This document shows, piece after piece, positions 10,959 to 52,939 of a stretch of DNA of 64,000 nucleotides. The position numbers were made by a program, and so were the translations under genes. Every line of letters begins with the position of its first letter. Position 1 is the first letter of the stretch. The notes beneath the pieces are model-generated. The model did not search any database, had not been told where the DNA came from, and saw nothing but the letters and a program-made list of their open reading frames with translations. This stretch comes from Bacillota bacterium. GTDB taxonomy: Bacteria > Bacillota > SHA-98 > UBA4971. Location of the stretch: NCBI GenBank assembly GCA_033809295.1, contig JAPXLY010000001.1:10340-74339 (forward strand), in the 5' to 3' direction.

Positions 10959-12347
10959 GTGGAGGTTTTGCAGAACCTGCTACAATCAGTTGTAGCAAAC
11001 ATAGATGAATACGTTGAAATACGATATCACAAGCGTATTGAGACAATTATCGATGCACGCAGCGGTGCTCTCAGAAAGGTAGAGAGAAGAACCCTTGCGG
11101 GGGCCGGTGTGAGAAGCCTTGTGGACGGGTGTTGGGGATTTGTCTCTACGACAGATGTAAGCAAAGAAGGATTACAGAATGCAGTCAACGAGGCGTTGCA
11201 GGCAGCCAAAGCCGGAGCCCCGCTCAGAGATAACAAGGTGAGTCTTGCGCCTGCACGCTTCGGCCATGGCGAATTCACTTACTACGATAGCAGCAAAGAA
11301 CCTGATATTTCCCAGAAGATACAGTATATCCTTGCCGCGGAAAAGCGTATGCGAGAGGCTTCTCCTCTCGTGGAAGGCAGTATTGTCTATTACCTACAGT
11401 ATGAAGATGAGAAAATCATTGCTACATCCCACGGCGCATCTGTGCACGTTAAAGACAACAAGCCCAGTTTTCAGGTAACAGCCACAGTTCTGAGAGACGG
11501 AAAGCGTGAGACGGCTACGAAATCGTCAGGGGTAACCGGCGGCTGGGATGACCTGATAGCGAAAAGAGACCTCAGTGAGTTGGTTGATACTGCAGTGGAG
11601 CTAGCAATAAAGAAACTCGACGCGGACTATGCCAAAGGGGGTCAGTACACGGTTATCTTGGACCCGAAACTTGTAGGTATTCTGTCCCATGAAGCGATAG
11701 GACATACCGTGGAAGCTGACTTTGTCCTTAGCGGGTCAATTGTCCGGGACAAGCTCGGCAGGAAGGTGGCGTCAGACCTCGTGACTCTTGTTGACGACGG
11801 GTCAGTGGAAGGCGCAGCAGGCATGGTTCTCGTGGATGATGAAGGCGTGCTTGGTGAGGGTACAGTCATCATTGATAAGGGAGTTTTAAAAAGCTATCTC
11901 CATAACAGAGAGTCTGCGTCTGTATTTGCGGCAGTTCCTTGCGGGAACGCCAGGGCATTTACTTATCGCGACGAGCCTATCATCAGGATGACCAACACAT
12001 TCATCATGCCGGGGAAAAGCGACCTGAAAGAAATGATTGCCGGGATTGATAAAGGCTTTCTTCTCATAGATTTGGCTCATGGAGGGCAGGCGGATTCCAG
12101 CGCTGAGTTTATGTTCGGGGTCTCCGAAGCCTACAGAATCGAAAACGGCAACCTCAAGGGGCTTGTCAAAGGAGTGACCATCTCAGGTCAAGCGTTCGAC
12201 GTGCTAATGAGCGTAGATGCTGCATCTTCCGACTTTCAGATGGACACAGGTGCAGGACATTGCGGCAAATGGCAGCCTGCAAAGGTTGACGGAGGCGGTC
12301 CATACCTCCGCTGTCAGGTGACTGTCGGAGGACGCCATGAAGAGTAG
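10959..12347 (+). CDS. tldD: Metalloprotease TldD
   Basis: TldD/PmbA fold with intact HExxxH (HEAIGHTVEAD). GTG start after ACAGGAGG. Confidence 0.8.
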   Translation: MEVLQNLLQSVVANIDEYVEIRYHKRIETIIDARSGALRKVERRTLAGAGVRSLVDGCWGFVSTTDVSKEGLQNAVNEALQAAKAGAPLRDNKVSLAPARFGHGEFTYYDSSKEPDISQKIQYILAAEKRMREASPLVEGSIVYYLQYEDEKIIATSHGASVHVKDNKPSFQVTATVLRDGKRETATKSSGVTGGWDDLIAKRDLSELVDTAVELAIKKLDADYAKGGQYTVILDPKLVGILSHEAIGHTVEADFVLSGSIVRDKLGRKVASDLVTLVDDGSVEGAAGMVLVDDEGVLGEGTVIIDKGVLKSYLHNRESASVFAAVPCGNARAFTYRDEPIIRMTNTFIMPGKSDLKEMIAGIDKGFLLIDLAHGGQADSSAEFMFGVSEAYRIENGNLKGLVKGVTISGQAFDVLMSVDAASSDFQMDTGAGHCGKWQPAKVDGGGPYLRCQVTVGGRHEE

Positions 12348-15553: not shown

Positions 15554-17128
15554 GTGGAGTACGGATGGTTAACGATAGTCCCGCCTCTTGTTGCTATTAC
15601 CCTTGCCCTCCTTACTAAGCAAGTAATCCTTTCGCTGCTTATTGGGATACTTTCAGGGTCATTTATTCTTACGAATTTCAGCCCTGTGGGCGCAATTAGC
15701 CTTTCAGCGATGACTATGTGGGAGAATATCACGGATCCTTGGAATATGGCGATCCTGGTCTTCCTGGTCACGCTCGGGATACTTACGTACCTCATGGTTA
15801 TTGCCGGAGGAGCGGCCGCCTATGGGGAATGGGCGGCAAAGCGTATAAAGTCAAGGGCAGGAGCCCAGCTTGCAAGCTTGCTTCTGGGGATAATCATATT
15901 CATCGATGACTATTTCAATTGCCTTACAGTAGGCACAGTCATGATCCCCGTCACAGACAGGTTCCGGGTGTCGCGAGCAAAGCTTGCTTATATCATTGAT
16001 TCGACGGCTGCTCCCGTTTGTGTGCTTGCCCCTGTATCAAGCTGGGTTGTGACTATTATGTCCACTATGGGTGACAAATTCCGAGACGTAGGTATTACCT
16101 TGGAGCCTTTTACAGCATTTATCAGGACTCTGCCTATGAACCTCTATGCATGGGCTACACTTGTCATGGTTGCGTTTGTTGCAGTTACCGAGCTTGATTT
16201 CGGGCCTATGGGGCGCTTTGAAAGAGAAGCGAAAGTTACAGGAAACATCTACGGGCCCCGGGCTTCAGAGGAAAAAGTGAAGCTTCCAAAAATCAGCACG
16301 AAGGGGACTGTTCCGGATTTGGTAGTCCCTGTTGTAGGGCTTATAGGCTTCGCGATTATTATGATGGCTTACACCGGCGGGTATTTCGTGGAAAACATCG
16401 GGTTTCTTGATGCTATCAAGAATACTGATGCTGCCACAGCCCTGATGTATGCCGGATTTCTTTCTCTCGCCCTTGCTTTGGTAATGTTCCTTTCGCGGGG
16501 AGTGATATCGGTTGGGAGGCTTCCCGAAGCAGCGTGGCAAGGATTCTTATCCATGGTCCCTGCCATACTGATCCTTTGCTTCGCATGGACTATAGGCGGA
16601 ATCATAAATCAACTGGGGACAGGATTATTTCTGGCGACAAGGGTAGGGCAGGCCCTTAACCCCGCACTATATCCTTTGATAATGTTCATCTTATCCTGCA
16701 TCATCGCATTCGCAACCGGTACTTCCTGGGGCACGTTTGCAATCATGATCCCAATCGCTGTGGACTTCGCTGTCTTGCTTGCGCCGGATCTGCTAATCGG
16801 AATGATCGGGGCAGTCCTTGCAGGCGCGGTTTATGGGGATCACTGTTCACCTATTTCTGACACTACCATCTTGTCATCTACCGGCGCAGGGTGTAACCAT
16901 ATCGACCATGTTTCGACTCAGCTCCCATACGCGACGGTGTCTGCCTTGATGTGCGGGATTGGGTACATAGTGTATGGATTCATGGCTCAATCAGGCGCGA
17001 ATCCGGCAGTGGCTGTTGCTGTGAGCTTCCTTGTAACCCTGGGACTTTTAGGCCTTGCGCTCAAAGGCCTCAATACTCTGACATTGAGCTCCGAATCCGG
17101 GATAGAAACGGGCAGGAGGATTGCGTGA
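15554..17128 (+). CDS. nhaC: Na+/H+ antiporter NhaC family protein
   Basis: About 12 TM. Sequence typical of the NhaC family (…FIDDYFNCLTVGTVM…). Confidence 0.8.
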   Translation: MEYGWLTIVPPLVAITLALLTKQVILSLLIGILSGSFILTNFSPVGAISLSAMTMWENITDPWNMAILVFLVTLGILTYLMVIAGGAAAYGEWAAKRIKSRAGAQLASLLLGIIIFIDDYFNCLTVGTVMIPVTDRFRVSRAKLAYIIDSTAAPVCVLAPVSSWVVTIMSTMGDKFRDVGITLEPFTAFIRTLPMNLYAWATLVMVAFVAVTELDFGPMGRFEREAKVTGNIYGPRASEEKVKLPKISTKGTVPDLVVPVVGLIGFAIIMMAYTGGYFVENIGFLDAIKNTDAATALMYAGFLSLALALVMFLSRGVISVGRLPEAAWQGFLSMVPAILILCFAWTIGGIINQLGTGLFLATRVGQALNPALYPLIMFILSCIIAFATGTSWGTFAIMIPIAVDFAVLLAPDLLIGMIGAVLAGAVYGDHCSPISDTTILSSTGAGCNHIDHVSTQLPYATVSALMCGIGYIVYGFMAQSGANPAVAVAVSFLVTLGLLGLALKGLNTLTLSSESGIETGRRIA

Positions 17129-17188
17129 TGAAAGGGTGGCCGGCGATTGTTTTGTCAAGGCAACCCGCTTGGGGAGTCGTCCCCTTAG

Positions 17189-17391
17189 TGCAACACCTGC
17201 CTCAGAAAACGTACGTACCGTGCGGGCCCACCCAAGACGATCGGAAAACCGGCGGTAACTAATGAACGAGACCGTTGTTCTCTCCCACATTATGTTAACG
17301 CAGCTCGCTTGAATCGCAAAGACCGGTCGCCGTCTTCGGCGAAACTGGCAGCTACTGGAGAAGTTCAACGGTCTCATGGTGATCTACTTAG
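17189..17391. repeat. Mosaic dispersed intergenic repeat, copy A (modules M1 + M2 + M3, with TGCAACACC flank)
   Basis: Convergent nhaC/feoB gap. Shares 57-nt module M1, 108-nt module M2 and the 26-bp inverted-repeat end M3 with the copies at 21395-21501 and 36697-36917. Spurious ORF 17048-17377(-) translates it. Confidence 0.7.
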
Positions 17392-18794
17392 AGCCGGCCA
17401 CCCTGCAGAAGTGCATAGACTTGCGTTATCAGAAAGCATGCGCCTGTAGCGATGAGAAGAGGCATCAATGCAGCGAAGAGCGTCCATTTTACGTCGCGGG
17501 TCTCATGCCAAATCGTCCACAAGGTCGTGGCGCACGGATAGTGGAGGACTGAGAAAGCAATAAAGCACAGGGCGGTTCGAGAGGTCCACCCACATGACAT
17601 GAGAAGGCCTCGAAGAGCGTTCAGGCTGTTCATGTCTACCATGACCCCTCCCGATGAGTACCCCATAGTCAAGACGGGAAGGACTATTTCATTTGCCGGG
17701 AGCCCCAGAAGAAATGCAGTGAGGATGAAACCGTCAAGGCCGATGGCATTCCCAAGCGGAGTAAGGGCGTCTGCGAGACGGAGAAGGAGGCTCACTCCGT
17801 GGAGACGGGTGTTCGCCAAGACCCATGTGACCATCCCTGCAGGAGCTGCCACAGACGCTGCTCTGGTAAGGACAAATACAGTTTTGTCGAGGAATGATCG
17901 AACAAGGATCTTCATGATTTGAGGCGGTCTATATGGTGGTAGTTCAATGGCAAATGCAGAAGGCATGCCCCTTAAGATGGTCCTGGATAATGCATGTGAC
18001 ACAATGAATGTCACGATTACTCCGAGGAACACCGAAAACATTAGCCAGACAGTTGTTGCGCCCGCACCGGCCACTGATGAAATACCTGATCTTAAGAACA
18101 TCGAGGATACCAGAATTATCGCCGGGAACCTTCCGTTACACGGAACAAAAGTGTTGGTGAGAAGCGCGATCAGCCTTTCTCTCGGAGAATCAATGATCCT
18201 GCACGCTACTGCCCCCGCTGCATTACATCCGAATCCCATGCACATTGTTAAAGCCTGTTTGCCATGACTTCCTACGCGCTTGAAGAATGTATCCAAGTTA
18301 AAGGCTATTCTCGGCAAGTACCCCAGGTCTTCCAGCAAGGCAAAACACGGGAAGAAAATTGCTATCGGCGGGAGCATGACTGATACTACCCATGCAAGAC
18401 ACCTATATGCGCCGAATACTGTTATGCCGATGAACCATTCTTGGGCATTAAAATGCCTGAAAACGCTCACAAAGTAGTCTTCAACTGAAAACAGAAGTCT
18501 GAAAAGAAGCGAAGAAGGCCAATTTGCCCCGACGAGAGTAATCCAGAAAACAGCCACAAGCAGTAATAGCATGGACGGGTACCCGGTTATGGGAGACGTA
18601 AGTATATCATCCAGCGCCGACGTTAGATCTCTTTCGTATCCGCCATGATTGTGCACGTTTGCCTTGCAGATCTCCTCTGAAGTTCTGCTTAACGATTCCG
18701 CAATAACATCAGAGAGCTCGCTATCGGAAAATGATTGGGCTTCCTCGGCTATTCTCATCACGTCTCGTAGTGAAGAAGGCATCGAGCTTCTCAT
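17388..18794 (-). CDS. feoB: Ferrous iron transporter FeoB, membrane (C-terminal) part, as a separate ORF
   Basis: Typical FeoB Gate/TM domains. Start ATG overlaps the upstream stop as ATGA, with AGAGGGTGG 9 nt upstream. The ORF track extends the frame to 18938, but that N-terminal 48 aa is Arg-rich and non-homologous. Confidence 0.75.
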   Translation of the reverse strand: MRSSMPSSLRDVMRIAEEAQSFSDSELSDVIAESLSRTSEEICKANVHNHGGYERDLTSALDDILTSPITGYPSMLLLLVAVFWITLVGANWPSSLLFRLLFSVEDYFVSVFRHFNAQEWFIGITVFGAYRCLAWVVSVMLPPIAIFFPCFALLEDLGYLPRIAFNLDTFFKRVGSHGKQALTMCMGFGCNAAGAVACRIIDSPRERLIALLTNTFVPCNGRFPAIILVSSMFLRSGISSVAGAGATTVWLMFSVFLGVIVTFIVSHALSRTILRGMPSAFAIELPPYRPPQIMKILVRSFLDKTVFVLTRAASVAAPAGMVTWVLANTRLHGVSLLLRLADALTPLGNAIGLDGFILTAFLLGLPANEIVLPVLTMGYSSGGVMVDMNSLNALRGLLMSCGWTSRTALCFIAFSVLHYPCATTLWTIWHETRDVKWTLFAALMPLLIATGACFLITQVYALLQGGRL

Positions 18795-19939: not shown

Positions 19940-20099
19940 GATTTCACCTCATCCGCATGAAACACGTCTTTACATACTATGACTGAAAGACAGCAAGGGG
20001 TCACTTCAATACAATGTCAATAGAGTTAAATGCCAATAGAGTAATTGATTGACCGTTCGGGAAATGGTAAGATATAGATGTTCCACAATTGAATCCAAG

Positions 20100-20361
20100 A
20101 CCTGACAGGTGCCCTTTCAGGGAGAATAGGGAAGAGGAAGCAGGATATAACCTGTAATCCCGCGGTTCCCGCCACTGTATCCGGCGAGCGTCCTTTCATC
20201 TTGCCACTCAATATGGGGAAGGCTTAAGGACTTGCAATGACCCGGAAGCCAGGAGACCTGCCTGTCCAAGTTTGCTTGTTACGCCTTCGGTGAAAGGGGG
20301 TTGCAAGCCAAAAGTTTGTTTTGGCGATGTGCCCCGGTGGAAGGCCGGGGTACTTCTTTTT
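20100..20361 (+). promoter_or_regulatory. Cobalamin (B12) riboswitch with intrinsic terminator
   Basis: GCCACTG motif at 20171-20177. B12 box AAGCCAGGAGACCTGCC at 20245-20262. Terminator CCCCGGTGGAAGGCCGGGG plus T-run at 20332-20360. Confidence 0.75.
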
Positions 20362-20444
20362 CAAGGAAGCCCAGGAGGAAAGCTCAAAGCTTGTCGCAAA
20401 CCGGCGGCCACTCGCCGGCTGACAGCACGATTGGAGGTTATGAC

Positions 20445-21398
20445 GTGGATGTAAACCGATGTGTAGGCGGTTCCGATTACCGGAGGAGGCCTTCCCCCTT
20501 TTCGGAAAGGCTGGCCCTCGTCGTTACTATTTCGGTACTTGGCATCTTGATAATGGGAGGTCGTGCCAACGCTGTAACGCGTGACGAAGTCACCGTTATT
20601 GACGCGCTTGGCAGGGAGGTCAAAGTGGGATTGCCGGTTGAGGCCATTGTGTCAATTGCCCCGAGCAACACTGAGATTCTGTTTGCTTTGGGTCTCGGCG
20701 CGAAAGTGGTAGGTGTTACAGAGGCGTGTGATTATCCTCCGGATGCCAAATCAAAACCGAAAGTCGGTCAAGTGGAGATGAACATAGAAAAGATAGCAGA
20801 GATGTCACCTGACCTTGTGGTAGCAGTTGCAAGCATGCAATTGCCGGTTATTGAAACCCTTTCCAATCTGGGCATACCTGTCTTGGCCCTGGACCCAAAG
20901 AACCTTTCGGATGTCCTGGATAGCATAACTATAGTGGGCACAGCCACAGGGGCGGAGGAAGCCTCAAGATTGCTTGTCACGGGACTTGCCGGCCGGATTC
21001 AAGATATTCAACGAAAGGCACTTAAAGCCATAGCAGAAGAAGGCAGGCCCAGGGTTTTTGTGGAGATATGGGACGACCCGTTGATGACCGCAGGGCCGGG
21101 CACTTTCATTGACGAGCTCATTAGGATTGCAGGCGGAGAGAATATAGCAGGTGACGCAGGTATGGAATGGCCTGAGTTCAGCGTGGAGGTTGTCGTTGAG
21201 AGGGATCCCGACGTGATAATCACGGTATGGACGGAACCGGAAGACGTGCTTGCGAGACCTGCTTGGAACCGGATATCCGCTTGTAAGAAAGGCAGGATTC
21301 GAAAAGTGAATCCTGACATCCTGACTCGTCCCGGGCCCAGATTGGTTGAGGGCTTAGCCGAGCTCCTGGAGATTATGCACCCGGGTTCAATCGACTAA
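20445..21398 (+). CDS. btuF: Cobalamin/iron-siderophore ABC transporter periplasmic binding protein (BtuF-like)
   Basis: TroA-like fold with signal peptide. GTG start 7 nt after GGAGG. The ORF track start at 20301 lies inside the riboswitch. Confidence 0.75.
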   Translation: MDVNRCVGGSDYRRRPSPFSERLALVVTISVLGILIMGGRANAVTRDEVTVIDALGREVKVGLPVEAIVSIAPSNTEILFALGLGAKVVGVTEACDYPPDAKSKPKVGQVEMNIEKIAEMSPDLVVAVASMQLPVIETLSNLGIPVLALDPKNLSDVLDSITIVGTATGAEEASRLLVTGLAGRIQDIQRKALKAIAEEGRPRVFVEIWDDPLMTAGPGTFIDELIRIAGGENIAGDAGMEWPEFSVEVVVERDPDVIITVWTEPEDVLARPAWNRISACKKGRIRKVNPDILTRPGPRLVEGLAELLEIMHPGSID

Positions 21399-21501
21399 GA
21401 AGATCACCATAAGTGATCGCCGGTTTTAGAGAGTGTTTGTACCGTGCGGGGCCACCCAAGCCAATCGGAAAACCGGCGAAAACTAATGAGCTCATACTTA
21501 G
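21395..21501. repeat. Mosaic dispersed intergenic repeat, copy B (M3-like end + M1, no M2)
   Basis: Between btuF and btuC. CTAAGAAGATCACCAT overlaps the btuF stop. M1-like GTACCGTGCGGGGCCACCCAAGCCAATCGGAAAACCGGCGAAAACTAATGAG. Confidence 0.6.
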
Positions 21502-22702: not shown

Positions 22703-23518
22703 ATGAGGCTTGATGCGTTTTCCATATGTCATAAGTACGGTATAATAATAGCCATAGACGACGTATCATTGTCTTTGGAAAGCGGAGAATTCGTCGGTAT
22801 TCTGGGCCCCAACGGTTCAGGAAAGACTACTCTCCTCCGAGTGCTGGCAGGAGCTATAAAGCCATCCGGAGGAAACGTCCTTCTCGATGGAGAAGACATT
22901 CATAAGATGCGCCCTAAGTCGGTTGCAGGGAAGATTGCCGTAGTACCGCAAAACGGACACATGCCCTTTCCTTTTTCTGTTTTCGAGATGGTAATGATGG
23001 GCCGCGAGCCTCACATGACGAGGTTTTCCAGGGAGAGCCCGAGAGACGTGGAGATTGTCTCACAGGCTATGGCAGCCACAGGTGTAGCCCATCTTGCAGG
23101 CAGGTCAGTGCTTGAGTTGTCTTACGGTGAGAGGCAGAGGGTTGTTGTTGCAAGAGCCCTTGCCCAGGAACCCGGAATACTGTTGTTAGATGAGCCTACT
23201 TCTCACCTTGACCCTGGTTACCGTATGGAGATCATGGATGTCTTCAAGTCCTTGTCGAGTCGCAGGAATATCGGAGTGCTGGCTGTTTTGCATGATGTCA
23301 ATTTGGCTTCTCAGTACGCAGACAGGTTGATCATGCTGAAACAAGGCAGAAAAGTGGCAGACGGGATCCCCCGGGAAGTTGTTACGAAAGAGATATTGGA
23401 AAGCGTCTACAGGGTGGACGCCATAGTCCGGGCTCACCCGGTAGTCGGTTGCCCCCAAATGATCCTGGTGCCGGGCTTCAGGGAGGGCCAGGGTGAGGAC
23501 AATTCCCCGGAAAACTGA
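22703..23518 (+). CDS. btuD: Cobalamin/iron ABC transporter ATP-binding protein (BtuD/FepC-like)
   Basis: Walker A GPNGSGKTT, LSYGERQR, Walker B LLLDEPTSHLD. Alignment begins at MRLDAFSI. An ATGA-coupled start at 22625 is an alternative. Confidence 0.75.
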   Translation: MRLDAFSICHKYGIIIAIDDVSLSLESGEFVGILGPNGSGKTTLLRVLAGAIKPSGGNVLLDGEDIHKMRPKSVAGKIAVVPQNGHMPFPFSVFEMVMMGREPHMTRFSRESPRDVEIVSQAMAATGVAHLAGRSVLELSYGERQRVVVARALAQEPGILLLDEPTSHLDPGYRMEIMDVFKSLSSRRNIGVLAVLHDVNLASQYADRLIMLKQGRKVADGIPREVVTKEILESVYRVDAIVRAHPVVGCPQMILVPGFREGQGEDNSPEN

Positions 23519-29379: not shown

Positions 29380-29456
29380 TGGTGCGCCTAGCAGGACTTG
29401 AACCTGCGCACCCGGCTCCGGAGGCCGGTGCTCTATCCCCTGAGCTATAGGCGCAC
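29380..29456 (-). tRNA. tRNA-Arg (anticodon CCG)
   Basis: 77-nt cloverleaf GTGCGCC…CTCCGGA anticodon loop…GGTTCAAGTCC…CGCACCA, with encoded CCA. Confidence 0.8.
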
Positions 29457-29518: not shown

Positions 29519-30514
29519 TTATGTTCTGGCAGAACCGGCAGGGCTTCGGTTTCCCTGCTTGGTGGAAAACCTCTCGTATATGCGAATGCAGCTCCAGATG
29601 GCAATAACGCCTCCTAGGGCTGTAGTTCCGAGCCTGCCGCCAATTCCCCCGAGGGAAGGTGCCCCCCATACCAAGACGAGCCCTGCAACGATACCTGCCA
29701 ATGCCATAAACCATTCGTTAGGGATTCGTGCCCTGGTGGACATACCTGCATAAGACCCACAGGCACAGGCGGCTGCTAAAGTCGCGCCAACCTCAGGAAA
29801 TAGGGCTGGCAGGATCAGCCCACCTACAACGCTTACGATACCGCTTCCCATAATCGGACCGTGTTTGAACCTGGTGCTGACAATATATGCGGCTTCCGCA
29901 GAAACAACCGCCACCGGCACGACGTATTTACCTACAGACCAATCCGGCACCGAAGCTGTAAGCATCTTGTTACCTGCTATCAATGCTGCTATGGTGCAAC
30001 CTGCTGCTGCCATGGCACCGAGTTTCCCGCCGAGACCGTTCATGGTTTCTTTTGCAAGCACGAATACAATTCCGGCTATTGCTGAAGCCAGTATCAGGTA
30101 CGGCACGCCCGGTAGGACCTTCATGGATACCATGCCGCAAAAGCTTCCGCAAGTGATAGCTGCGCCAAAGGCGGGCATAATCAGCGCAGCCAGAACTGTA
30201 ACCAGGCCTGCACCTAATACCGCTCCAAGACCTAGGGTTACGTTCAACCAATGGCTGGCCAGAGCCCCTCCAATAACTGCAACAACGAGTTGTAGGTCGG
30301 AAGCGCTAAGGGGCGGGTTCTTGGCGTTTTGAGCTGTAGGCCACTCAAACCAGTATCCTACCAGGAGGGTAAGCACTGCAAGCGCCAGTGGCACTGCAGC
30401 AGGTGAAGTAAGGACTACACTTTGCATAAAGCCTGTTATGTACAGATAACCGCTTATTGCCACCAGTACGACGAACCCTATCATTGACCTTTTCATTGTG
30501 ACGCTCCTCTCCAC
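29519..30514 (-). CDS. Hypothetical Gly/Ala-rich polytopic membrane protein (about 10 TM)
   Basis: Highly hydrophobic, no soluble domains. Adjacent to fdhD, so a small-solute transporter role is possible but unsupported. Confidence 0.5.
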   Translation of the reverse strand: MERSVTMKRSMIGFVVLVAISGYLYITGFMQSVVLTSPAAVPLALAVLTLLVGYWFEWPTAQNAKNPPLSASDLQLVVAVIGGALASHWLNVTLGLGAVLGAGLVTVLAALIMPAFGAAITCGSFCGMVSMKVLPGVPYLILASAIAGIVFVLAKETMNGLGGKLGAMAAAGCTIAALIAGNKMLTASVPDWSVGKYVVPVAVVSAEAAYIVSTRFKHGPIMGSGIVSVVGGLILPALFPEVGATLAAACACGSYAGMSTRARIPNEWFMALAGIVAGLVLVWGAPSLGGIGGRLGTTALGGVIAIWSCIRIYERFSTKQGNRSPAGSART

Positions 30515-30648
30515 AAGGTATTTTCAGTTGTTAGGCGATTTAGCGATCGTGCTTTGGGTTACGCTTTAGAGTCAAAGCTCAATCCATTGAGGCAGGACGC
30601 TGCTGCGTAGCAGGTAAAACCAGCGCCTGCCGGATCCCAACATCATGT

Positions 30649-31482
30649 TTAGCCAGGTTTAGTATGTTTTCGGCCGGCAGGGTCTATGCCTGCCACCCGT
30701 TCCGAATTCGAATACACCGTCATGCGCCGGTCTCTGACAAACCCTATTATGGTCACTCCTGTCTTTTGAGCAGTTTTTACTGCCACATCCGTTGGAGGCG
30801 CTTTTGACGCTACTATAGGTATTTCGGCGGAAACCATCTTGTCCACGATTTCTGCGTTAATCCTACCGGTTAGAGCGACCATCTTATTGTCCAGAGGAAT
30901 TCTTTCAAGAAACGCATGGCCTATCACTTTATCTACAGCGTTGTGGCGGCCTATATCTTCGTGCCACAGCAAGATTCCTTTATTGTCACACAATGCTGCA
31001 GCGTGAGAGGCGCCTGTCATTTCAAAAAGTGAGGAGCGCTTCAGCAGGTCATCGAATATCTCACACATGGTTCCCGGGTCAAATATGGGATATGGCTCTG
31101 AAACAGGTGGGGTCTGTTCCAGGTGGCAGCCTGAGCCTGCTTCCGGCAATTCTGCCGGTTTCGGTGCATCTTCCGGGGCCGTTTGCTCTGTCTCCACGTA
31201 GATTACATTCTTTTCAGGGAGGCACCTCAGTTCCACCACCCGGTCAGCATATCTAAGCAATCCTCCGGTTAAGAGGTGTCCCAGGGCAAGATACTTCATA
31301 CCGGACGGAGAACATGACGGAATATTCACTGAAATAGTACGGTAAAGCACAGTCAAGCTTGACTCAACTATGACCGTGTCCCGTGCTTCGCTGACTGTTT
31401 CGCCATTTGTCCCTATTGCAGAAAACCGTTTTATGGGGACTTCTGCATAGTCCGGACAATCTGAAGTATGGCCCACTCTCAA
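30649..31482 (-). CDS. fdhD: Formate dehydrogenase accessory sulfurtransferase FdhD
   Basis: FdhD family sequence (…DIGRHNAVDKVIG…) with conserved Cys. Confidence 0.8.
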   Translation of the reverse strand: MRVGHTSDCPDYAEVPIKRFSAIGTNGETVSEARDTVIVESSLTVLYRTISVNIPSCSPSGMKYLALGHLLTGGLLRYADRVVELRCLPEKNVIYVETEQTAPEDAPKPAELPEAGSGCHLEQTPPVSEPYPIFDPGTMCEIFDDLLKRSSLFEMTGASHAAALCDNKGILLWHEDIGRHNAVDKVIGHAFLERIPLDNKMVALTGRINAEIVDKMVSAEIPIVASKAPPTDVAVKTAQKTGVTIIGFVRDRRMTVYSNSERVAGIDPAGRKHTKPG

Positions 31483-31539
31483 CCCCTCTTTTAGTGTCCC
31501 TACATGCTTGAACGCCTTCGAATAGGACTATAAGCGCGC

Positions 31540-32217
31540 TTACCGTAAACTATGCTGTAAATTACACATGAACTTACACAAATCCTCTTTCGTATTTATG
31601 TTCACGAAAGACCGCAGTTCAGGGTCAATGGCCCGGATGTCAGTTTCATCCGCATAGCCTATGTTGACCTTGGAGAATACGCTTCTTACGCGGTAGTCTC
31701 CTTTTGCCAGGCTATCTCTGATCGGCGCCATGCATTTTCTGGAGTATAGTGCAAATAGCGGTTCGAGGTAAGAACCGAGCCTCGGGATAAAAATATCATA
31801 GCCGTCGCAACCTGTGACCATCCACCTTATCAGGTTGGAGTCAGCACACGGCATGTCGCAAGCAATAACGAAACAATAAGGGGTTTTGCACACTGACAGG
31901 GCACTGTAAATCCCAACCAGGGGTCCGTTTCCCTCTATACAATCGCCAATCGTCCGAACCCCGGGCACATGAAAGTCATCTGCATTCTTGGCTACAATAA
32001 GGATGTCTGAAAAGGCCTCTCTAAGTGCGTCAACAACATACATGATCATCTGCCTGCCATCAACGACTATGGAGGGCTTGTCCAAGCCCATCCTTCTACT
32101 TTTCCCCCCGGCGAGCACTGCACCGGTGATATGGTCGTTTCTCATTTTTGCAGCATAATTACGATTTACCGCATATTTGAGCCCGAATCCCCGGATGCAT
32201 AAGCTAAATTGCAGCAA
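31540..32217 (-). CDS. mobA: Molybdenum cofactor guanylyltransferase MobA
   Basis: AVLAGGKSRRMG motif. Probable start at the internal Met (MRNDHITGAVLAGG). 14-nt overlap with the fdhA end. Confidence 0.7.
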   Translation of the reverse strand: MLQFSLCIRGFGLKYAVNRNYAAKMRNDHITGAVLAGGKSRRMGLDKPSIVVDGRQMIMYVVDALREAFSDILIVAKNADDFHVPGVRTIGDCIEGNGPLVGIYSALSVCKTPYCFVIACDMPCADSNLIRWMVTGCDGYDIFIPRLGSYLEPLFALYSRKCMAPIRDSLAKGDYRVRSVFSKVNIGYADETDIRAIDPELRSFVNINTKEDLCKFMCNLQHSLR

Positions 32218-34981
32218 CCGGAGAAGCCAATTCCTGGTCGGGCGGTATCGGCCGGTCTTCTCCAGTAGGGTTTACCTGTACCTTTCCTTTGGCTTCATCA
32301 GGAAGGCGGTCTATTCGTACAGCACATACTTTAAACTCAGGGATTTTTGCCTTTGGATCCAAAGCCGGATTAGTCAGCACGTTGGCTGCCGCTTCAGCGA
32401 AGTGGAACGGCATAAATACCACACCGGGAGCAGGCCACGAAGTAACCATGGCCTTAACTTTGACTTCGCCTCTGCGGGAAGACACCAGAACCATCTCTCC
32501 GTCAGCGATACCCAGGTCTTTAGCAGTTTCCGGCGAGATTTCAATATACCCTTCAGGCCTATGGGCGTTGAGTGCCTTGGCCCTTCTGGTCATTGAGCCC
32601 GTATGGTAGTGATACAGCATCCGTCCTGTTGTAAGAGTTAACGGGTATTCTTCATCAGGGAGCTCTGCCGCGGGAATATATTCAACAGCAGTGAACAGTC
32701 CCAGGCCGCGGGAGAATTTGCCTTTATGCAAGTATGGCGTACCAGGGTGGTCCTCTGCAGGGCATGGCCACTGGAGCCCGTCGCCGGCTAACCGGCTATT
32801 AACTATTCCTCCGTAGATTGGCGTAAGCGAAGCGATCTCATCCAGTACTTCAGCAGGTGAGGAGTAGTTCATCGGATAACCCATCCGGTTTGATATCTCA
32901 GTGATGATTTCCCAGTCAGTCCTTGCTTCACCCGGAGGGTTTACTGCTTTTCTCACAAGCTGGACCCGTCTTTCCGTGCTGGTGAAAGTCCCCTCTTGTT
33001 CTGCGAAACAAGCGGAAGGAAGCACTACGTCTGCCAGTCTGGCTGTCTCCGTAAGAAAAATATCTTGCACGACCAGGAAGTCAAGATTCCTGAGTGCAGT
33101 TTCCACATGGTTGATGTCCGGGTCAGACACCATTGGGTTTTCACCCATAATGTAGAGGCCTTTGAGATTGCCATCGTAGGCGGCATTGATAGCTTCAGTT
33201 ACCGCAAGGCCTGGATTGGGTGGTAGTTCACATCCCCATGCCTTTTCGAATTTACCTCGAATGGCAGGGTCAGTGACTGCCTGATAACCCGGGAAAAGGT
33301 TGGGGAGTGCGCCCATGTCGCAGGCTCCTTGAACGTTATTCTGCCCGCGAAGGGGGTTGACTCCGACGCTTTCCTTACCCAGATTACCTGTGAGCATGGC
33401 CAAGTTTGCAGTTGAAAGCACGTTGTCGGTTCCGGTGGAATGCTGGGTTATGCCCATTGAGTAGATTAGGCTGGCCGTATCCGCTGTCGCGTAGGCTATT
33501 GCAGCTTCGATTATGTCGTCGGCTGGAACGCCGGTTATTTCTGATACGTGCTCAGGGGTATATTTACTTACAGAGTCCTTAAGAGCCTCAAAATTCTCAG
33601 TCCTTGTTTCGATGAAGTCCTTGTCGTGGAGGCCTTTGTCTATAATTACGTTCATCATACCGTTCAGAAGCGCAACGTCGGTACCGGGGCGATGCTGCAG
33701 GTAAATGTGTGCTTTTTGAGCCAGTTCAACTCTTCTGGGGTCTGCAACGATAAGTTTGGCGCCTCTTCTGAGTGCTTCTTTTACCTGAATACCGATTACA
33801 GGATGGTTTTCAGTAGTATTTGAACCAATGATGAACACTGCCTTGGCGTCTGCTATTTCGTGGATGGAGTTTGTCATAGCACCACTGCCGAAACTTGCGG
33901 CAAGTCCCGCAACGGTTGAAGCGTGACATAACCTGGCACAATGGTCAACGTTGTTAGTGCCTATAGTAGCTCTGGCAAGTTTTTGCATGAGATAGTTCGC
34001 TTCGTTTGTGCATTTGGCAGAGGAGAAAAATGCTACCGCATCAGGGCTGTGGCTATGTGCCAATTCGCCGAGTTTGGAACTCACGAGTTCAAGGGCTTCA
34101 TCCCAGGAGGCCTCCCTAAACCCATCGCCTTCCCTGATTAACGGTACCCTAAGCCGGTCCGGGTGATGGATAAAGTCAAGTCCGAACCTACCCTTAACGC
34201 AAGTGAATCCTTTGTTCACAGGGCCGTCCGCACCCGAAGCACCTACTACCTTGCCGTTTTTAACGTGCAGGTAAATGAGGCATCCTGTGCCACAGTACGG
34301 ACACGTGGTTTCCACTTTCGCGATCTCCCAAAAGCGGCCCTGCCCAATGCTTTGCTTTGGAATGAGGGCCCCTACAGGACAAACTTGCACGCAGTTGCCA
34401 CAAAATACGCATGGGGAGTTTTCTAACGGTTCTCCCCATGCAGGTGCCACTACAGTTTCATAGCCCCTGCCCACTGGGCTAATAGCATCCTGTCCTTGGA
34501 TGTCACTGCAAACAGCGACACATCGTCCGCATAAAATGCATTTACTTAAGTCTCTGATAAAGAAGGGGTTGGTATCGTCCAGTTCGGGAGCAGTTCTGTC
34601 TGAAGGGAATCTTCGCTCTTCCAGGCCGTACTCGTATGCGTACTCCTGAAGTTTGCAATCTCCGTTTTTTTCACAAGTCATACAATCCGTACGGTGGTTT
34701 GACAAGATGAGTTCCAGCACATTGCGTCTTGCTTGGCGCACAAATTCGGTATTAGTTTTGACTACCATGTTATTGACTACTGGAGTCACGCACGAAGCCA
34801 CAAGCGTCTTGGCCCTTTCAACTTCCACCAGGCATACTCTGCATCTGCCGGTTTCGTTTATATCCTTGAGATAACACAATGACGGTATCTCAATTCCGGC
34901 AGTTTTAGCAGCCTCCAAGATTGACGTTCCCTCTTCAACTTGAACCTGCGCACCGTCAATTGTCAGCGTTACCGAAGGCAT
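32204..34981 (-). CDS. fdhA: Formate dehydrogenase catalytic subunit (Mo/W-bisPGD), Cys-type, with NuoG-like N-terminal 2Fe-2S/4Fe-4S domains
   Basis: N-terminal 2Fe-2S ferredoxin, His-ligated cluster and two 4Fe-4S motifs. Molybdopterin oxidoreductase body. Active-site segment HCARLCH has Cys where Sec would be. No in-frame TGA. Confidence 0.85.
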   Translation of the reverse strand: MPSVTLTIDGAQVQVEEGTSILEAAKTAGIEIPSLCYLKDINETGRCRVCLVEVERAKTLVASCVTPVVNNMVVKTNTEFVRQARRNVLELILSNHRTDCMTCEKNGDCKLQEYAYEYGLEERRFPSDRTAPELDDTNPFFIRDLSKCILCGRCVAVCSDIQGQDAISPVGRGYETVVAPAWGEPLENSPCVFCGNCVQVCPVGALIPKQSIGQGRFWEIAKVETTCPYCGTGCLIYLHVKNGKVVGASGADGPVNKGFTCVKGRFGLDFIHHPDRLRVPLIREGDGFREASWDEALELVSSKLGELAHSHSPDAVAFFSSAKCTNEANYLMQKLARATIGTNNVDHCARLCHASTVAGLAASFGSGAMTNSIHEIADAKAVFIIGSNTTENHPVIGIQVKEALRRGAKLIVADPRRVELAQKAHIYLQHRPGTDVALLNGMMNVIIDKGLHDKDFIETRTENFEALKDSVSKYTPEHVSEITGVPADDIIEAAIAYATADTASLIYSMGITQHSTGTDNVLSTANLAMLTGNLGKESVGVNPLRGQNNVQGACDMGALPNLFPGYQAVTDPAIRGKFEKAWGCELPPNPGLAVTEAINAAYDGNLKGLYIMGENPMVSDPDINHVETALRNLDFLVVQDIFLTETARLADVVLPSACFAEQEGTFTSTERRVQLVRKAVNPPGEARTDWEIITEISNRMGYPMNYSSPAEVLDEIASLTPIYGGIVNSRLAGDGLQWPCPAEDHPGTPYLHKGKFSRGLGLFTAVEYIPAAELPDEEYPLTLTTGRMLYHYHTGSMTRRAKALNAHRPEGYIEISPETAKDLGIADGEMVLVSSRRGEVKVKAMVTSWPAPGVVFMPFHFAEAAANVLTNPALDPKAKIPEFKVCAVRIDRLPDEAKGKVQVNPTGEDRPIPPDQELASPVAAI

Positions 34982-36231: not shown

Positions 36232-36690
36232 ATGCTGCCGACTCCACGGAGATTCACGTTGGTTGCAGGAAGCGCAGAAGGGGATACGCAACTTACAGCA
36301 TTCGATAAGGCGTTGCTTGTGGCGGGCGTTGGTAATTTGAACCTTGTCAGGGTTTCCAGTATTCTTCCCCCCGGTGCTGAGTATTCGCAGCAAATTGATA
36401 TTCCACCCGGATTTCTCACGCCGATTGCATATGGGACTATCAGCAGCGAAGTTCCCGGCCTTGTTATCTCTGCTGCTATCGGCGTAGGCGTCATAACCGG
36501 AAGCTTCGGCGTGATCATGGAATTTACCGGGATATGCAGGAAAGCCGAGGCAGAGAAGAGGGTTGAGAAGATGGTGCGCGAAGCCCTGGCCATCCGTAAT
36601 GCCCATCCTGAGAGAATAATGGTGAAGGCCACGGAACACGTGGTAGAGAAAGTGGGGTGTTCATTTGCCGGCGCCGTCCTATGGTACTGA
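36232..36690 (+). CDS. pdaD: Pyruvoyl-dependent arginine decarboxylase (PdaD family)
   Basis: …LLVAGVGNLNLVRVSSILPPG… matches the pyruvoyl-ArgDC motif including the SS self-cleavage site. Size about 150 aa. RBS GGGAGGGGG before the ATG at 36232. Confidence 0.7.
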   Translation: MLPTPRRFTLVAGSAEGDTQLTAFDKALLVAGVGNLNLVRVSSILPPGAEYSQQIDIPPGFLTPIAYGTISSEVPGLVISAAIGVGVITGSFGVIMEFTGICRKAEAEKRVEKMVREALAIRNAHPERIMVKATEHVVEKVGCSFAGAVLWY

Positions 36691-36696
36691 GTATGG

Positions 36697-36917
36697 GTTC
36701 ATTAGTTTTCGCCGGTTTTCCGATTGTCTTGGGTGGCCTCGCACGGTACGTACGTTTCTCAGAGCTAGCGATTACTTGTGGCGAAGACCGTTCGACTTCT
36801 CCAGTAATCGCCAGTTTCGCCGAAGACGTCGGCCAGTTCTTGCGATTCGGGCGGGCTGTGTTAACATAATATGGGAGAGAACAACGGTCTCATGGCGATC
36901 TACTTAGATGCAACACC
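36697..36917. repeat. Mosaic dispersed intergenic repeat, copy C (M1 and M2 inverted relative to copy A, 29-nt insert, M3 end, TGCAACACC flank)
   Basis: Starts 7 nt after the pdaD stop. M1 and M2 are each the reverse complement of their copy-A counterparts, but in the same left-to-right order, with M3 unchanged at the right end. Spurious ORFs 36657-36907 and 36665-36907 translate it. Confidence 0.7.
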
Positions 36918-37036
36918 GGAGGAAACACCGGAGGAAATTGGTTGTCATTAGACATCGGTCACAGTTATAATGTATGATGGTAACCCGGGGCGTTCGGTAA
37001 TGCCCGGCTGCAACAGAGTATTTGGAGCTGCAATTT

Positions 37037-38797
37037 ATGAGACGGAAATTTCAGGTGTTAGATGACTTTTTTGCGCGACATCGGTATAGGTATGTCATAG
37101 GGGTGCTGTTCTTTCTCGCTGTTGATGTTCTTCAACTGCTGGTTCCACGGCTGCTCGGTAATATGACTGATGAGTTTCGAGAAGGCGTCTTGACAATGCA
37201 AGGACTCCTTCGTTACGTATTTCTTATTATCGGCATAGCCGTCCTTGTGGCAGTGGGAAGGTACTTCTGGCGCATCTACCTGTTTGGAACGGCAAGACTC
37301 CTTGACTATGCTCTGAGGAACAAGTTCTTTGCCCACCTTGAGACGCTATCCGCGGATTTCTTCAACAGGCACAAGACAGGCGAACTGATGGCACATGCTA
37401 CCAATGATATCCATGCAGTCCGCCATGCATTCGGACAAGGCATAATGTTATCGATAGACGCAGTATTTCTCACTATCGCCACTGTCTCGATTATGCTGAC
37501 TACTATTGATACTCGCCTTGTACTCCTGGGCCTTCTGCCGTTACCCTTCGTTGCCCTGGTCGTCACCGGGTTTTCCAGAGTGATACATTCGAGGTTTCTC
37601 AGAGTCCAAGAAGCTTTCGCCGGCCTTACTGACTTTGTTCAGGAGAATCTCAGCGGTATCCGAGTGGTCAAGGCTTTTGTCCAGGAAGAAGCTGAATTGG
37701 CAAGGTTCATGCATTCAAATGAGACGCTTGTTGCCACTAACATGCATTTAGTCAAGGTGTGGGGCCTTTTCTGGCCTCTTGTGCAGTATTTGGCCGGACT
37801 TAGCTTTGTGGTGGTACTGGGTTACGGTGGACGGTTGGTTGTCTTAGGTGACATAAGCCTCGGTGATTTCGTGGCATTTACGGGATATCTCGGAATAGCG
37901 ATATGGCCTATGATGGCAATAGGCTGGGTAGTCAACACTCTTCAACGAGGCATGGCGTCCATGGATAGGCTTAATCTGATATTCCGGGTACAGCCGAAAA
38001 TCACTGATCACGAGGATGCGGTGGATACTTCGGAGATTGAAGGGGAGATTGAATTTCGGGCTTTGACATTTGAGTATCCTGATGCGATTTCACCGGTGCT
38101 TCACGGAATCACCCTCCAAATCCCTCAAGGCATGACTCTGGGCATTCTTGGTCGTACAGGCAGTGGAAAAAGCACTCTTACAGATCTCCTCCTCAGAGTC
38201 TACGATCCTTCCCCCGGCGAGCTCCTCATTGATGGGATAGATATTACAAAGATCCCCTTGGCGATATTGAGGAGAGATATCGGCTATGTGCCGCAGGACG
38301 ACTTCTTGTTTTCAGCATCAATAGGGGAAAACATCGGATTTGCAAGTTCGGAGTTTTCTCGTGAAGAGGTGGAACACGCTGCTGAACTTGCAGGGGTCAA
38401 AGATGATATCCAGGGATTTCCCAAAGGGTTTGATACTCTTGTGGGCGAGCGGGGAGTTACCCTTTCCGGCGGGCAAAAACAGAGGGTTGCAATAGCGAGA
38501 GCGCTCGTTAAGGATCCCAGAATACTAATTCTCGATGACTGCTTCTCGGCAGTGGATACCGGAACAGAGGAGAGGATCCTCGAGTCACTGCGGGATGTAA
38601 GGCGGGGGAGGACGACTATCTTAATCTCCCATAGAATCTCCACTCTGAAGGAAGCGGATGAAATCATAGTCTTAGACGAGGGGCAAGTAGTCGAGAGGGG
38701 AGATCATGAGTCTCTTGTGGCTGCAGGGGGACTATATGCAGAGATTCATAGGCGACAATTGCTGGAAGCTGAACTCAGCTCTGATGAGGAGACATAA
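37037..38797 (+). CDS. ABC exporter, fused TMD-NBD half-transporter (heterodimer subunit 1)
   Basis: Six TM followed by Walker A GRTGSGKST, LSGGQKQR, Walker B LILDDCFSAVD. Confidence 0.8.
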   Translation: MRRKFQVLDDFFARHRYRYVIGVLFFLAVDVLQLLVPRLLGNMTDEFREGVLTMQGLLRYVFLIIGIAVLVAVGRYFWRIYLFGTARLLDYALRNKFFAHLETLSADFFNRHKTGELMAHATNDIHAVRHAFGQGIMLSIDAVFLTIATVSIMLTTIDTRLVLLGLLPLPFVALVVTGFSRVIHSRFLRVQEAFAGLTDFVQENLSGIRVVKAFVQEEAELARFMHSNETLVATNMHLVKVWGLFWPLVQYLAGLSFVVVLGYGGRLVVLGDISLGDFVAFTGYLGIAIWPMMAIGWVVNTLQRGMASMDRLNLIFRVQPKITDHEDAVDTSEIEGEIEFRALTFEYPDAISPVLHGITLQIPQGMTLGILGRTGSGKSTLTDLLLRVYDPSPGELLIDGIDITKIPLAILRRDIGYVPQDDFLFSASIGENIGFASSEFSREEVEHAAELAGVKDDIQGFPKGFDTLVGERGVTLSGGQKQRVAIARALVKDPRILILDDCFSAVDTGTEERILESLRDVRRGRTTILISHRISTLKEADEIIVLDEGQVVERGDHESLVAAGGLYAEIHRRQLLEAELSSDEET

Positions 38798-49394: not shown

Positions 49395-49706
49395 ATGGAG
49401 ACGATGACAGGGACGAGTAGGTTGCATCCCGGAGTTTCAGCGAACCGAGGGAGGTGTAAGTCGGGGCTCAGGAGCGCCGAAAATCACCCTGGAGTAGCCA
49501 CGCGAAATCAGAGACGGTACTTTGTGCCGGACGACGAGAGTAGACGTGGCCGGGCCCTCCCGATACAGAGGTATGGCATTTTGGACGCAGCATGGCTTAG
49601 GCTGGGTTTAATGTGTCTATGAGTGGGTTGCCAGAGGCAGCCAATTTGGGTGGTACCGCGAGAGTTGAGTCTCCCGTCCCGATTTCGGGGCGGGAGATTT
49701 TTGTAC
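49395..49706 (+). promoter_or_regulatory. T-box riboswitch leader (Ile-specific, putative) controlling ileS
   Basis: T-box sequence AATTTGGGTGGTACCGCG at 49643-49660. Terminator CTCCCGTCCC…GGGGCGGGAG plus T-run. Candidate AUC specifier in GAAAATCACC. Confidence 0.75.
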
Positions 49707-52700: not shown

Positions 52701-52939
52701 AGGACAGAATCGTTACAGTGTTCTGGTCTGACAGCGAAGTAGAAGAAGCGTGTATGCTCCACAAGGATTACATCATGGAAGAGACTCTTTCCAGGGATTT
52801 CGTATATGGTGGTGAGGCCGGACTCGCGAAGCCTGTAGGGGAGCATTATCGAGAGTGGGATCTAAATGGCCACCTTACCGCAATCAGCGTAAGTCGTAAA
52901 GAGGTGGACGAACTTGGACAGAGAGGTTCAGAAGCATGA
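49739..52939 (+). CDS. ileS: Isoleucyl-tRNA synthetase, type 2 (eukaryote-like)
   Basis: HIGH-region variant HPGH, KMSKS present, 1066 aa. N-terminus (MFRKVEPGRNMPHMEEEILEFW) resembles the type-2 enzymes. Confidence 0.9.
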   Translation: MFRKVEPGRNMPHMEEEILEFWKKQGIFQKTLQKTKDGPRFIFYEGPPTANAMPHPGHVLTRVMKDLIPRHRTMCGYHVPRKGGWDTHGLPVELEIEKELGISGKPQIEEYGVENFIEKCKESVFRYKREWERMTERVGFWIDLDNAYVTYEDYYIESVWWALKKIWDKGLLYKGHKVVPYCPRCGTALSSHEVAQGYQEVEDPSVYVKFSLKGEDDTAFLVWTTTPWTLPSNVALAVHADAIYVKIGLTGTGSKLILAKELLSSAIPDDEGYEVIDEFKGESLVGAEYEPLFRYTVPRKKAWYVVSQDFVTLSDGTGIVHLAPAFGEDDMNASLQHDLPVIQLVDEEGRFTEEVTEWKGMPVKEADPLIIEDLKSRGSLYRSQEYAHTYPFCWRCDTPLLYYARTSWFIKTTAVKDALLRNNNAVSWYPQYIKDGRMGNFLENVIDWAVSRERYWGTPLPIWICDDCGETHCVGSIEELKEMAFELPEKLELHRPYIDKARLRCPKCGGSMGRTKEVIDAWFDSGSMPFAQWHYPVENDDEFKRNFPADFISEAIDQTRGWFYTLLVISTLLFDKPPFESVLVLGHVLDAEGMKMSKSKGNVVDTWEVFNTYGADAFRWYLYTVNPPWNPTRFYLEAIGESQRRFLSTLWNVYSFYVLYANVDGFDPGAYQLPVEERGILDRWIISRFNRLAETVQTELEAYSITPAARAIEEFTDDLSNWYVRRSRRRYWGAEMTQDKIAAYLTLHEMLVGLSKLLAPFTPFISEEIYRNLEGERRNGAPESVHLCEYPVCSQNLMDPELEQNMAVARKLVTLGRSARSKVNIKIRQPLSEMVAVLQDPRGQKAVCELATIIKEELNVKSIRVAEDVSEFVAYRVKPRFDLLGPKYGKLMRHIVAGLEGLNPRDIVAELEDKGRVDIPCGEEAVSVLAEELIVDTVEQEDFAIESEGEVTCALRTALSRELVMEGLAREMVNKIQTMRKEADFNVEDRIVTVFWSDSEVEEACMLHKDYIMEETLSRDFVYGGEAGLAKPVGEHYREWDLNGHLTAISVSRKEVDELGQRGSEA

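Follow-up and report, generated by a model that had tools for sequence, protein, structure and literature searches.

The three dispersed repeats present in the 64-kb window, the whole stretch of DNA analysed here, are copies of a family of MITEs (miniature inverted-repeat transposable elements), a new family of a well-known, RUP/Correia-like kind. The best explanation, to which we assign a probability of about 0.8, is that copies A, B and C are old, fixed copies of a non-autonomous DNA transposon that inserts at TA within CTAG in an uncultured Bacillota of anaerobic digesters. The earlier note on this DNA had described a dispersed mosaic family of MITE-like or RUP/BOX-like repeats, a description borne out by further copies, empty sites, CTAG/TA flanks and the lack of any Rfam match.

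Copies and anatomy of the repeat family

A direct reading of the window sequence placed every motif quoted in the earlier note where it had been reported. In a repeat search, the M1 module of copy A (17204/17207 to 17265/17267) matched positions 21428-21489 in copy B at 84% in direct orientation, and positions 17207-17267 matched 36697-36757 in copy C at 92% in inverted orientation. The M2 module of copy A (17268-17375) matched 36785-36891, also inverted, at 86%. When as many as three mismatches are allowed, the 27-nt core of M1 has three occurrences in the window, compared with 0.00 expected from 100 shuffles, and blastn with full-length copies detected copies A, B and C and no others in the 64 kb.

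Scanning metagenome contigs for the M1-core pattern identified nine loci, one of them a near-duplicate, eight on MTKW01 and one on LSQX01. All nine share modules with the window copies, and none is identical to the window. Searches by blastn with full-length copies revealed a second copy (L009b) in locus L009 and another in L029, a syntenic relative. The additional copies outside the window (those at the nine pattern-scan loci, near-duplicate included, together with L009b and the L029 copy) number 10, and they speak against the possibility that the window repeats are the only ones and derive from a duplicated gene fragment. The duplicated-fragment model was rejected, as was that of an integron attC site.

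MAGs and contigs of the same species, recognized by exact matches to window proteins, come from anaerobic-digester and biogas metagenomes and include GCA_012512055.1, GCA_036836215.1 and LSQX01. Several same-species short-read contigs (L004-L008, L023-L025 and L034) start or stop within M1 or M2, as expected of a multi-copy repeat. Beyond these sources, an M1-core scan of the species-representative genome collection returned just two hits, both within genes and attributable to chance, one in Paenibacillus and the other in an unrelated MAG, and no match to the element was found among viral contigs (pattern scan), plasmids or phages (both blastn). The translation of the longest pseudo-ORF of the element matched no entry and no protein family in the protein collection searched.

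The canonical unit is copy B, which spans 21396-21500 on the plus strand and consists of a 101-nt element (21398-21498) with one TA on each side, for a total of 105 nt, flanked by C21395 and G21501. It lies in a cobalamin-riboswitch operon between a btuF-like gene (20301-21398) and a FecCD permease gene starting at 21561. The minimal unit reads C-TA-AGTAGATCGCCAT AAGTAATCGCCGG ...GTACGTACCGTGCGGGG CCACCCAAGACAATCGGAAAACCGGCGAAAACTAATGAAC TCATACT-TA-G and is seen in copy B and in loci L011 and L012; copy C and L009b are reduced to the same unit when M2 is removed.

The ends of the element (AGTAGATCGCCATAAGTAATCGCCGG) form imperfect terminal inverted repeats of about 34 bp, which in copy B are CTAAGTAGATCGCCATAAGTAATCGCCGG... 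and ...CCGGCGAAAACTAATGAACTCATACTTAG, with 22 of 34 positions identical. Where the ends are correctly set, which applies to ten copies, the left one agrees with the right at 17-22 of the 34 positions (50-65% identity). The conserved pattern is TAAGTA....CAT.AGT..TCGCCGG, composed of an outer TAAGTA and an inner CAT.AGT..TCGCCGG. The 10-bp inverted repeat previously taken to bound the whole element belongs instead to the nested M2 module, the true terminal inverted repeats of the host element being CTAAGTAGATCGCCAT.../...ATGAACTCATACTTAG. The inner repeat arms, ATCGCCGG(TTTT) and (AAAA)CCGGCGA, pair in predicted folds; in copy B they pair in the DNA fold with a z-score of -2.56.

Copies fall into discrete size classes. 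Once M2 and 6 accompanying nucleotides are subtracted, lengths are 105, 194/199 and 238/239 nt, and each class occurs with or without the 114 nt contributed by M2. The longer classes feature extra internal segments, M4 and M5, together with some 40 nt of host sequence in duplicate. The borders of M4 are GCCGGTGTTGCA...TGCAATCACCGGC, and M5 is a hairpin, AAAATCCGGCC...GGCCGGATTTT. Both the 105-nt unit and M2 contain stops in most frames, and no frame exceeds about 35 residues. Bacterial MITEs are typically about 100-200 bp long and carry terminal inverted repeats, TA at the termini and target duplications (PMC2229807). By the general features of bacterial MITEs (about 100-500 bp, no coding capacity, terminal inverted repeats), the family qualifies in being non-coding, in its sizes (about 105, 194 and 239 nt, each M2 adding 114 nt) and in its terminal inverted repeats, imperfect as they are. 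It also occurs in multiple dispersed copies, the presence or absence of which varies among related genomes and is fixed within the species.

Insertion sites and stop codons

Four syntenic loci from related organisms, reached through FecCD permease homologues at 74-83% identity, allowed filled and empty sites to be compared. The btuF-FecCD gap, 162 nt long in the window, measures 59, 59 and 54 nt in L028, L029 and L031, respectively, and in L030 the two genes overlap. At the site of copy B, the relatives read GAT-TAG and the window reads GAC-TA-[101 nt]-TA-G. Copy C, a minimal unit with M2 inserted at the left-repeat site, occupies 36688-36906 on the minus strand. In plus-strand order, it comprises TG at 36688-36689, the element at 36690-36904 and TA at 36905-36906. 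The corresponding site is empty in L029, whose TGGTAT-TA-GATG stands against TGGTAC-TG-[215 nt]-TA-GATG in the window, and both flanks of this locus are conserved in L029, including the downstream promoter. L029 in turn carries a partial copy of its own, flanked by cobO and an ABC ATPase gene; neither the window nor L028 has an insertion there. In the case of copy A, alignment failed for the nhaC-feoB gaps of L028 and L030.

A C precedes the left TA in 9 of 11 copies, and a G follows the right TA in 9 of 11. This C|TA...TA|G consensus identifies the target as CTAG, or TTAG as in the empty sites, with the central TA found on both sides of the insert. The pattern indicates insertion into CTAG/TTAG with a putative duplication of TA, as is the case for IS630/Tc1-mariner elements. 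From the two filled/empty comparisons (B and C) and the flank consensus, we infer that TA is duplicated, rather than that one TA belongs to the element. Insertion at TA, with duplication of the dinucleotide, is documented for the IS630 family (PMC2170065), and the title of a paper in the reference list of that article (Tenzen & Ohtsubo 1991) speaks of a preference for TA within 5'-CTAG-3'.

Other registers were considered and rejected. Direct duplication of 3 or 4 bp is at odds with the flanks, TAA at the left end and TTA at the right, which are inverted rather than direct, and duplication of AG predicts an empty site one base longer than that of L029. IS5-type 4-bp and Tourist-type TWA duplications were likewise discarded as models.

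Element ends often coincide with stop codons. In 5-6 of the 13 elements, one of the flanking TAs lies within the stop codon of a long open frame, and all three window copies overlap stops, namely those of feoB (A), the btuF-like gene (B) and an arginine decarboxylase gene (C). CTAG is very rare in this DNA, with 22 occurrences in 64 kb where base composition predicts 248 and a Markov estimate 111; four of these 22 serve as stops for frames of 100 codons or more. Because CTAG contains TAG on both strands and is so rare in the genome, surviving insertions would often be found on a stop codon, as expected of an element that prefers CTAG and is tolerated outside coding sequence alone. TA-duplicating insertion into CTAG thus accounts for the coincidence of element ends with stops. 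Insertion would convert TAG into TA plus the first A of the element, that is, TAA, and the stop would be kept. For instance, the left TA of copy B begins the TAA stop of the btuF-like gene. In copy C, the duplicated TA appears to have since decayed to TG, generating TGA (36688-36690), the stop with which the gene for the pyruvoyl arginine decarboxylase still ends.

The M2 module and the composite structure of copy A

M2 is a small element nested within the larger one. It is always 108 nt long, has its own 10-bp inverted repeat and, in canonical copies, is flanked by a 6-nt direct duplication. It is located either after ...CAT in the left terminal repeat or at the mirror site in the right repeat, in either orientation. 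Its flanks are direct repeats of the host, CGCCAT/CGCCAT or TACCAT/TACCAT on the left and ATGAAC/ATGAAC on the right, and this repetition of host sequence is what a separate insertion that duplicates a 6-bp target leaves behind. In copy C, M2 occupies 36784-36891 on the minus strand (108 nt), and the duplication reads CGCCAT / CGCCAC, corresponding on the plus strand to ATGGCG at 36892-36897 and GTGGCG at 36778-36783; subtracting M2 and 6 nt leaves exactly 105 nt. Copy C and L009b, which reside in different contigs and organisms, share the same composite architecture and align without gaps over 219 nt at 87%, suggesting either that M2-bearing units spread as units or that they are old.

The mosaic look of the family has three likely sources. 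M2 was probably inserted repeatedly at the mirrored NNNCAT| positions inside each host inverted repeat, in either orientation, and the changing 6-bp flanks would point to independent mobility of M2. The optional segments M4 and M5 account for the discrete size classes, and recombination or inversion between internal inverted repeats probably produced hybrids such as copy A. A bolder reading, which we put forward tentatively and regard as possible rather than probable, is that M2 is a "MITE of a MITE", the sole target of which is the 6-bp NNNCAT at the mirrored position in the repeats of one host MITE. It would enter there in either orientation and be carried along as the host transposes, driving rearrangements like copy A through M2-M2 recombination. 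M2 might alternatively be an inverton, flipped at its 10-bp inverted repeats by a site-specific recombinase, or an ancestral module that was lost from some copies by deletion between the 6-bp repeats. Both orientations do occur at the same positions, no M2 was seen outside the host element in the roughly 200 kb examined, and deletion between the 6-bp direct repeats would excise M2 precisely. The 6-bp repeats, however, differ by site (CGCCAT vs ATGAAC) and match the uninterrupted host, as target duplications do. The orientation of M2 in copies A and C is, moreover, constant in every spanning same-species assembly, assemblies showing the majority state, and an inverton would not normally be expected to exist as dozens of dispersed copies. 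On balance, we consider an inverton or a lost ancestral module rather unlikely.

Of the three window copies, copy A departs furthest from the canonical form, and its ends do not conform to the consensus. It is a rearranged, truncated composite at 17134-17391 on the plus strand, where blastn with the full-length copy L017 aligns 17150-17391. It lies in the space separating the stop codons of nhaC (TGA, 17126-17128) and feoB (TAA, minus strand, 17388-17390), and its left side is truncated a few bases past the nhaC stop. The left end is not at 17189, as given earlier, and really lies near 17134; M4 is located at 17140-17199. From left to right, copy A consists of GGGTGG, an inverted M4, the host core, M2 and a left-type outer repeat in reverse complement.

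The M4 segment (17140-17199, minus strand) is recognized by CCGGCGATTG, TTTTGTCAAGGCAACCCGCTTGGGGAGTCGTCCCCTTAG and TGCAACACCTG from comparison with L010, L013, L014, L015 and L017, in which it is found in the other orientation between GTACCGTGCGGGG and CCACCC. The motif TGCAACACC, which had been described as flanking the element, is indeed present at 17189-17197 and 36909-36917. It is neither a flank nor a target duplication, being an internal M4 inverted-repeat arm in copy A and lying outside both the element and the TA duplication in copy C. The host core of copy A (17200-17267, plus strand; CCTCAGAAAACGTACGTACCGTGCGGGC, CCACCC, AAGACGATCGGAAAACCGGCGGTAACTAATGAAC) corresponds to M1 with 7 additional nucleotides on its left, and its final 25 nt or so make up the inner portion of the terminal inverted repeat on the right.

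The modules M1, M2 and M3 of the earlier note are all present. M2 of copy A (17268-17375, plus strand, 108 nt) has a perfect 10-bp inverted repeat, GAGACCGTTG/CAACGGTCTC, and is 96% identical in blastn to the right-hand M2 of L017, in opposite orientation. Its flanks are of mixed origin: the left one, ATGAAC, is of the right-site type, and the right one, ATGGTG, is the reverse complement of the left-site CACCAT. M2 of copy A is accordingly flanked by a hybrid junction of the kind that recombination between M2 copies at opposite ends would yield. M3, recorded as ATGGTGATCTACTTAG at 17376-17391, is the outer terminal inverted repeat (17376-17388, plus strand; ATGGTGATCTACT, the reverse complement of AGTAGATCACCAT), followed by the flanking TA (17389-17390), a presumed target duplication that forms with T17388 the minus-strand TAA of feoB. 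This TAA closes an open frame of 517 codons. What had been read as a 26-bp right inverted repeat, formed by the M2 arm and M3, is actually a 27-nt direct match between copies A (17366-17392) and C (36882-36908) at 96%. The rest of M2 and M1 match in inverted orientation, and the orientation of M2 relative to M3 is therefore opposite in the two copies. In same-species contigs, copy A is identical or 98.8% identical.

Possible origins and relationship to known elements

The family was probably mobilized by cut-and-paste, by a transposase of the IS630/Tc1-mariner type that would have been supplied in trans and would have bound the terminal inverted repeats. Neither an autonomous element nor a transposase bearing matching inverted repeats was detected among the nine window ORFs tested or in the fetched loci scanned for the repeat motif, and no long element having these ends occurs in the window or those loci. 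A lineage-specific block of 5.5 kb at 29.5-35 kb encodes FdhD, MobA-like and formate-dehydrogenase-like proteins and contains no mobility genes. In same-species contigs from several other samples, the window copies occupy the same positions in the same orientation and are 98.8-100% identical, and neither polymorphism within the species nor inversion of M2 was found in the contigs spanning them. Copies diverge from each other by 13-20%, which suggests that the family is old. Judged from these comparisons, the family appears ancient and is probably no longer active in the species, the window copies being fixed.

The main alternative is a MITE dependent on a transposase of another family, either of the IS5 type (CTAG/YTAR target, 3-4-bp duplication) or Harbinger/Tourist-like with a TWA target. 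Some IS5 subgroups generate duplications of 2-4 bp, and no partner transposase was found from which the present family could be assigned directly. There is also a precedent in MITEPsy1, a probable IS5-family derivative that inserts at, and duplicates, CTAG or YTAA (PMC3189936). The flank pattern argues against such an origin here. The flanks are TAA...TTA in nearly all copies, an inverted arrangement that a 3- or 4-bp direct duplication misfits, and the L029 empty site for copy C has the length predicted by a 2-bp TA duplication. An IS5-type or Tourist-like origin is hence improbable in our estimation, although clearly less so than the two readings that follow.

The mosaic of modules in alternating orientations, the several internal hairpins and the intergenic location of the copies at gene 3' ends would also suit a REP/BIME-like palindrome mosaic rather than a DDE-type MITE, spread by recombination or by a RAYT, a tyrosine transposase of the IS200/IS605 kind. 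Within the gap separating nhaC and feoB in L030, a hairpin features 14 nt identical to part of M1. REPs are imperfect palindromes of 20-40 nt that are not known to make a target duplication. The present units, in contrast, are at least 105 nt long, with a constant 105-nt minimal form, terminal inverted repeats of about 34 bp, C|TA...TA|G flanks, a TA duplication and empty sites containing a single TA; no RAYT gene was found among the nine window ORFs scanned. We regard this origin as very unlikely. The model of an IS200/IS605 PATE or omega-RNA remnant was considered separately and rejected.

Least probable of all, and almost negligible in our view, is a functional structured RNA (a cis-regulatory element, an sRNA or a riboswitch-like leader) with the modules acting as RNA domains. 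Copy B, located inside an operon, would be co-transcribed, and M2 of copy A folds into a long hairpin with a z-score of -3.07. A match to a known riboswitch would have reassigned the repeats, but neither a riboswitch nor any other Rfam 15 family matched them, either at the gathering score (whole window) or at permissive thresholds (E ≤ 10 for 17000-17600 and E ≤ 1 for three full-length relatives). RNA folds of copy A as a whole have z-scores of about -1.1 on either strand and are no better than shuffles. The alignment of nine M2 copies shows 1 compensatory pair out of 29 and several broken ones, with a covariation term of +0.2 (slightly unfavourable). Moreover, the orientation of the element relative to the flanking genes differs, being the same in copy B and opposite in copy C, and the element is missing from the orthologous sites of close relatives. 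Promoter and terminator scans of all three copies detected nothing convincing inside the elements. A good promoter at 36942-36971 lies outside copy C and is conserved in L029.

As a MITE family, the repeats are most readily likened to RUP of Streptococcus pneumoniae, also a member of the Firmicutes. RUP is 107 bp long, targets TA and is thought to be mobilized by IS630-Spn1 (PMC2229807). The two families are similar in size (about 107 bp vs 105 nt), and both are non-coding and intergenic, with terminal inverted repeats and TA insertion. The likeness drawn here is a structural one. The window family differs from RUP in its nested module, optional internal segments and pronounced association with CTAG and stop codons, and in that no cognate insertion sequence corresponding to the presumed IS630-family mobilizer of RUP was found.

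Correia (NEMIS) elements of Neisseria likewise have TA termini with target duplication, terminal inverted repeats and length classes that arise through an optional internal segment, their 107- and 155-bp forms being a 50-bp internal segment apart (PMC2229807). They are often co-transcribed with neighbouring genes. In contrast to the window family, they belong to another host phylum and are unrelated in sequence, and no IHF site or promoter-like ends were detected in the window copies. The added module of the window family, moreover, lies inside the terminal inverted repeats and has its own 6-bp duplication.

TA insertion and duplication are shared with IS630/ISY100, the bacterial Tc1-mariner family, and the window flanks (C|TA and TA|G, each in 9 of 11 copies) fit this target. 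The window elements differ in lacking a transposase gene, and no partner from the IS630 family whose ends match theirs was found. BOX elements and BIMEs are mosaics of a few modules that vary in presence, number and orientation, and the window family is likewise built from a small set of modules. Neither is known to have defined target duplications or transposon-like terminal inverted repeats. In contrast, the outer unit of the window family behaves as a classical MITE.

For the digester bacterium that carries it, the family accounts for contigs breaking off at these points and for three intergenic regions that exceed their counterparts in relatives by 100-220 nt. It also provides a clear example of a CTAG/TA-targeting element that lies on stop codons and would leave the stop in place, TAG being converted into TAA, or into TGA after decay. 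The hairpin-forming insert represented by copy B, located in a cobalamin-riboswitch-controlled transport operon, could affect mRNA processing. Such MITEs are well known, and the general understanding of them is unchanged; the value of the present family resides in its being new, in its presence in an uncultured Bacillota lineage and in its nested architecture. Most unusual about it is M2, another small element, seen at mirrored sites inside the inverted repeats of its host alone. If M2 does parasitize a host MITE in this manner, its combination with CTAG/stop targeting would represent, for bacteria, an unusually clear instance of non-coding mobile elements that parasitize one another hierarchically.

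Family copies in genes and operons

A cobalamin riboswitch lies on the plus strand of the window at positions 20090–20279 (Rfam RF00174, 89 bits), and the operon downstream of it includes btuF-like, FecCD, ABC ATPase and cobO genes. Copy B of the MITE family, a family of small non-coding elements inserted at TA, is located within this riboswitch-controlled operon (21396–21500), where it separates gene 1 from gene 2. A partial family copy, made up of the M5 hairpin (an optional internal segment), the core and the right end, was identified in a related organism (L029, positions 11869–12018). The left part of this copy overlaps the 3′ end of an ABC ATPase gene, the stop codon of which now falls within the TTGACA of the element.

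Other features of the window

A tRNA gene (29383–29454, minus strand) adjoins Spo0A and is followed, also on the minus strand, by a block of ~5.5 kb (29519–34981) encoding a 331-aa ORF, FdhD, a MobA-like protein and a molybdopterin oxidoreductase of 925 aa that resembles formate dehydrogenases. No mobility genes were found in this block. In the relatives L028 and L029 the corresponding interval instead carries a TrkH gene, a gene-content difference between lineages. On the plus strand at 49395–49684, upstream of a 1066-aa ORF (49739–52939), is a T-box leader (RF00230, 101 bits). Direct repeats of 30 nt, 70–83% identical, occur at 1747–1776, 23135–23164 and 38480–38509. Each lies within an ORF, and at least two of these three ORFs encode ABC-transporter ATPases; the family is probably a conserved coding motif rather than a mobile repeat. 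Throughout the window, the tetranucleotide CTAG is strongly depleted, with 22 occurrences where base composition predicts 248 and a Markov estimate 111.

Element-like sequences outside the copies

Directly to the right of copy C, beyond its TA, we identified the sequence TGCAACACCGG, after which the 12-nt unit AACACCGGAGGA is perfectly repeated in tandem (2.2 units; 36909–36937). Read as its reverse complement, TGCAACACCGG exactly matches the left inverted-repeat arm of M4, an optional internal segment of the element. L029 differs from the window at this site. The match could reflect coincidence, gene conversion, or the remnant of another module.

The nhaC-feoB gap of a related genome (L030, 5912–5950) features the hairpin GTACCGTGCGGGaagatCCCGTGCGGTAC, which looks like a terminator, as a T-run follows it. 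One arm of this hairpin shares 14 identical nucleotides (ACGTACCGTGCGGG) with the M1 core of the host element. The core of the MITE may have captured a terminator hairpin or may mimic one.
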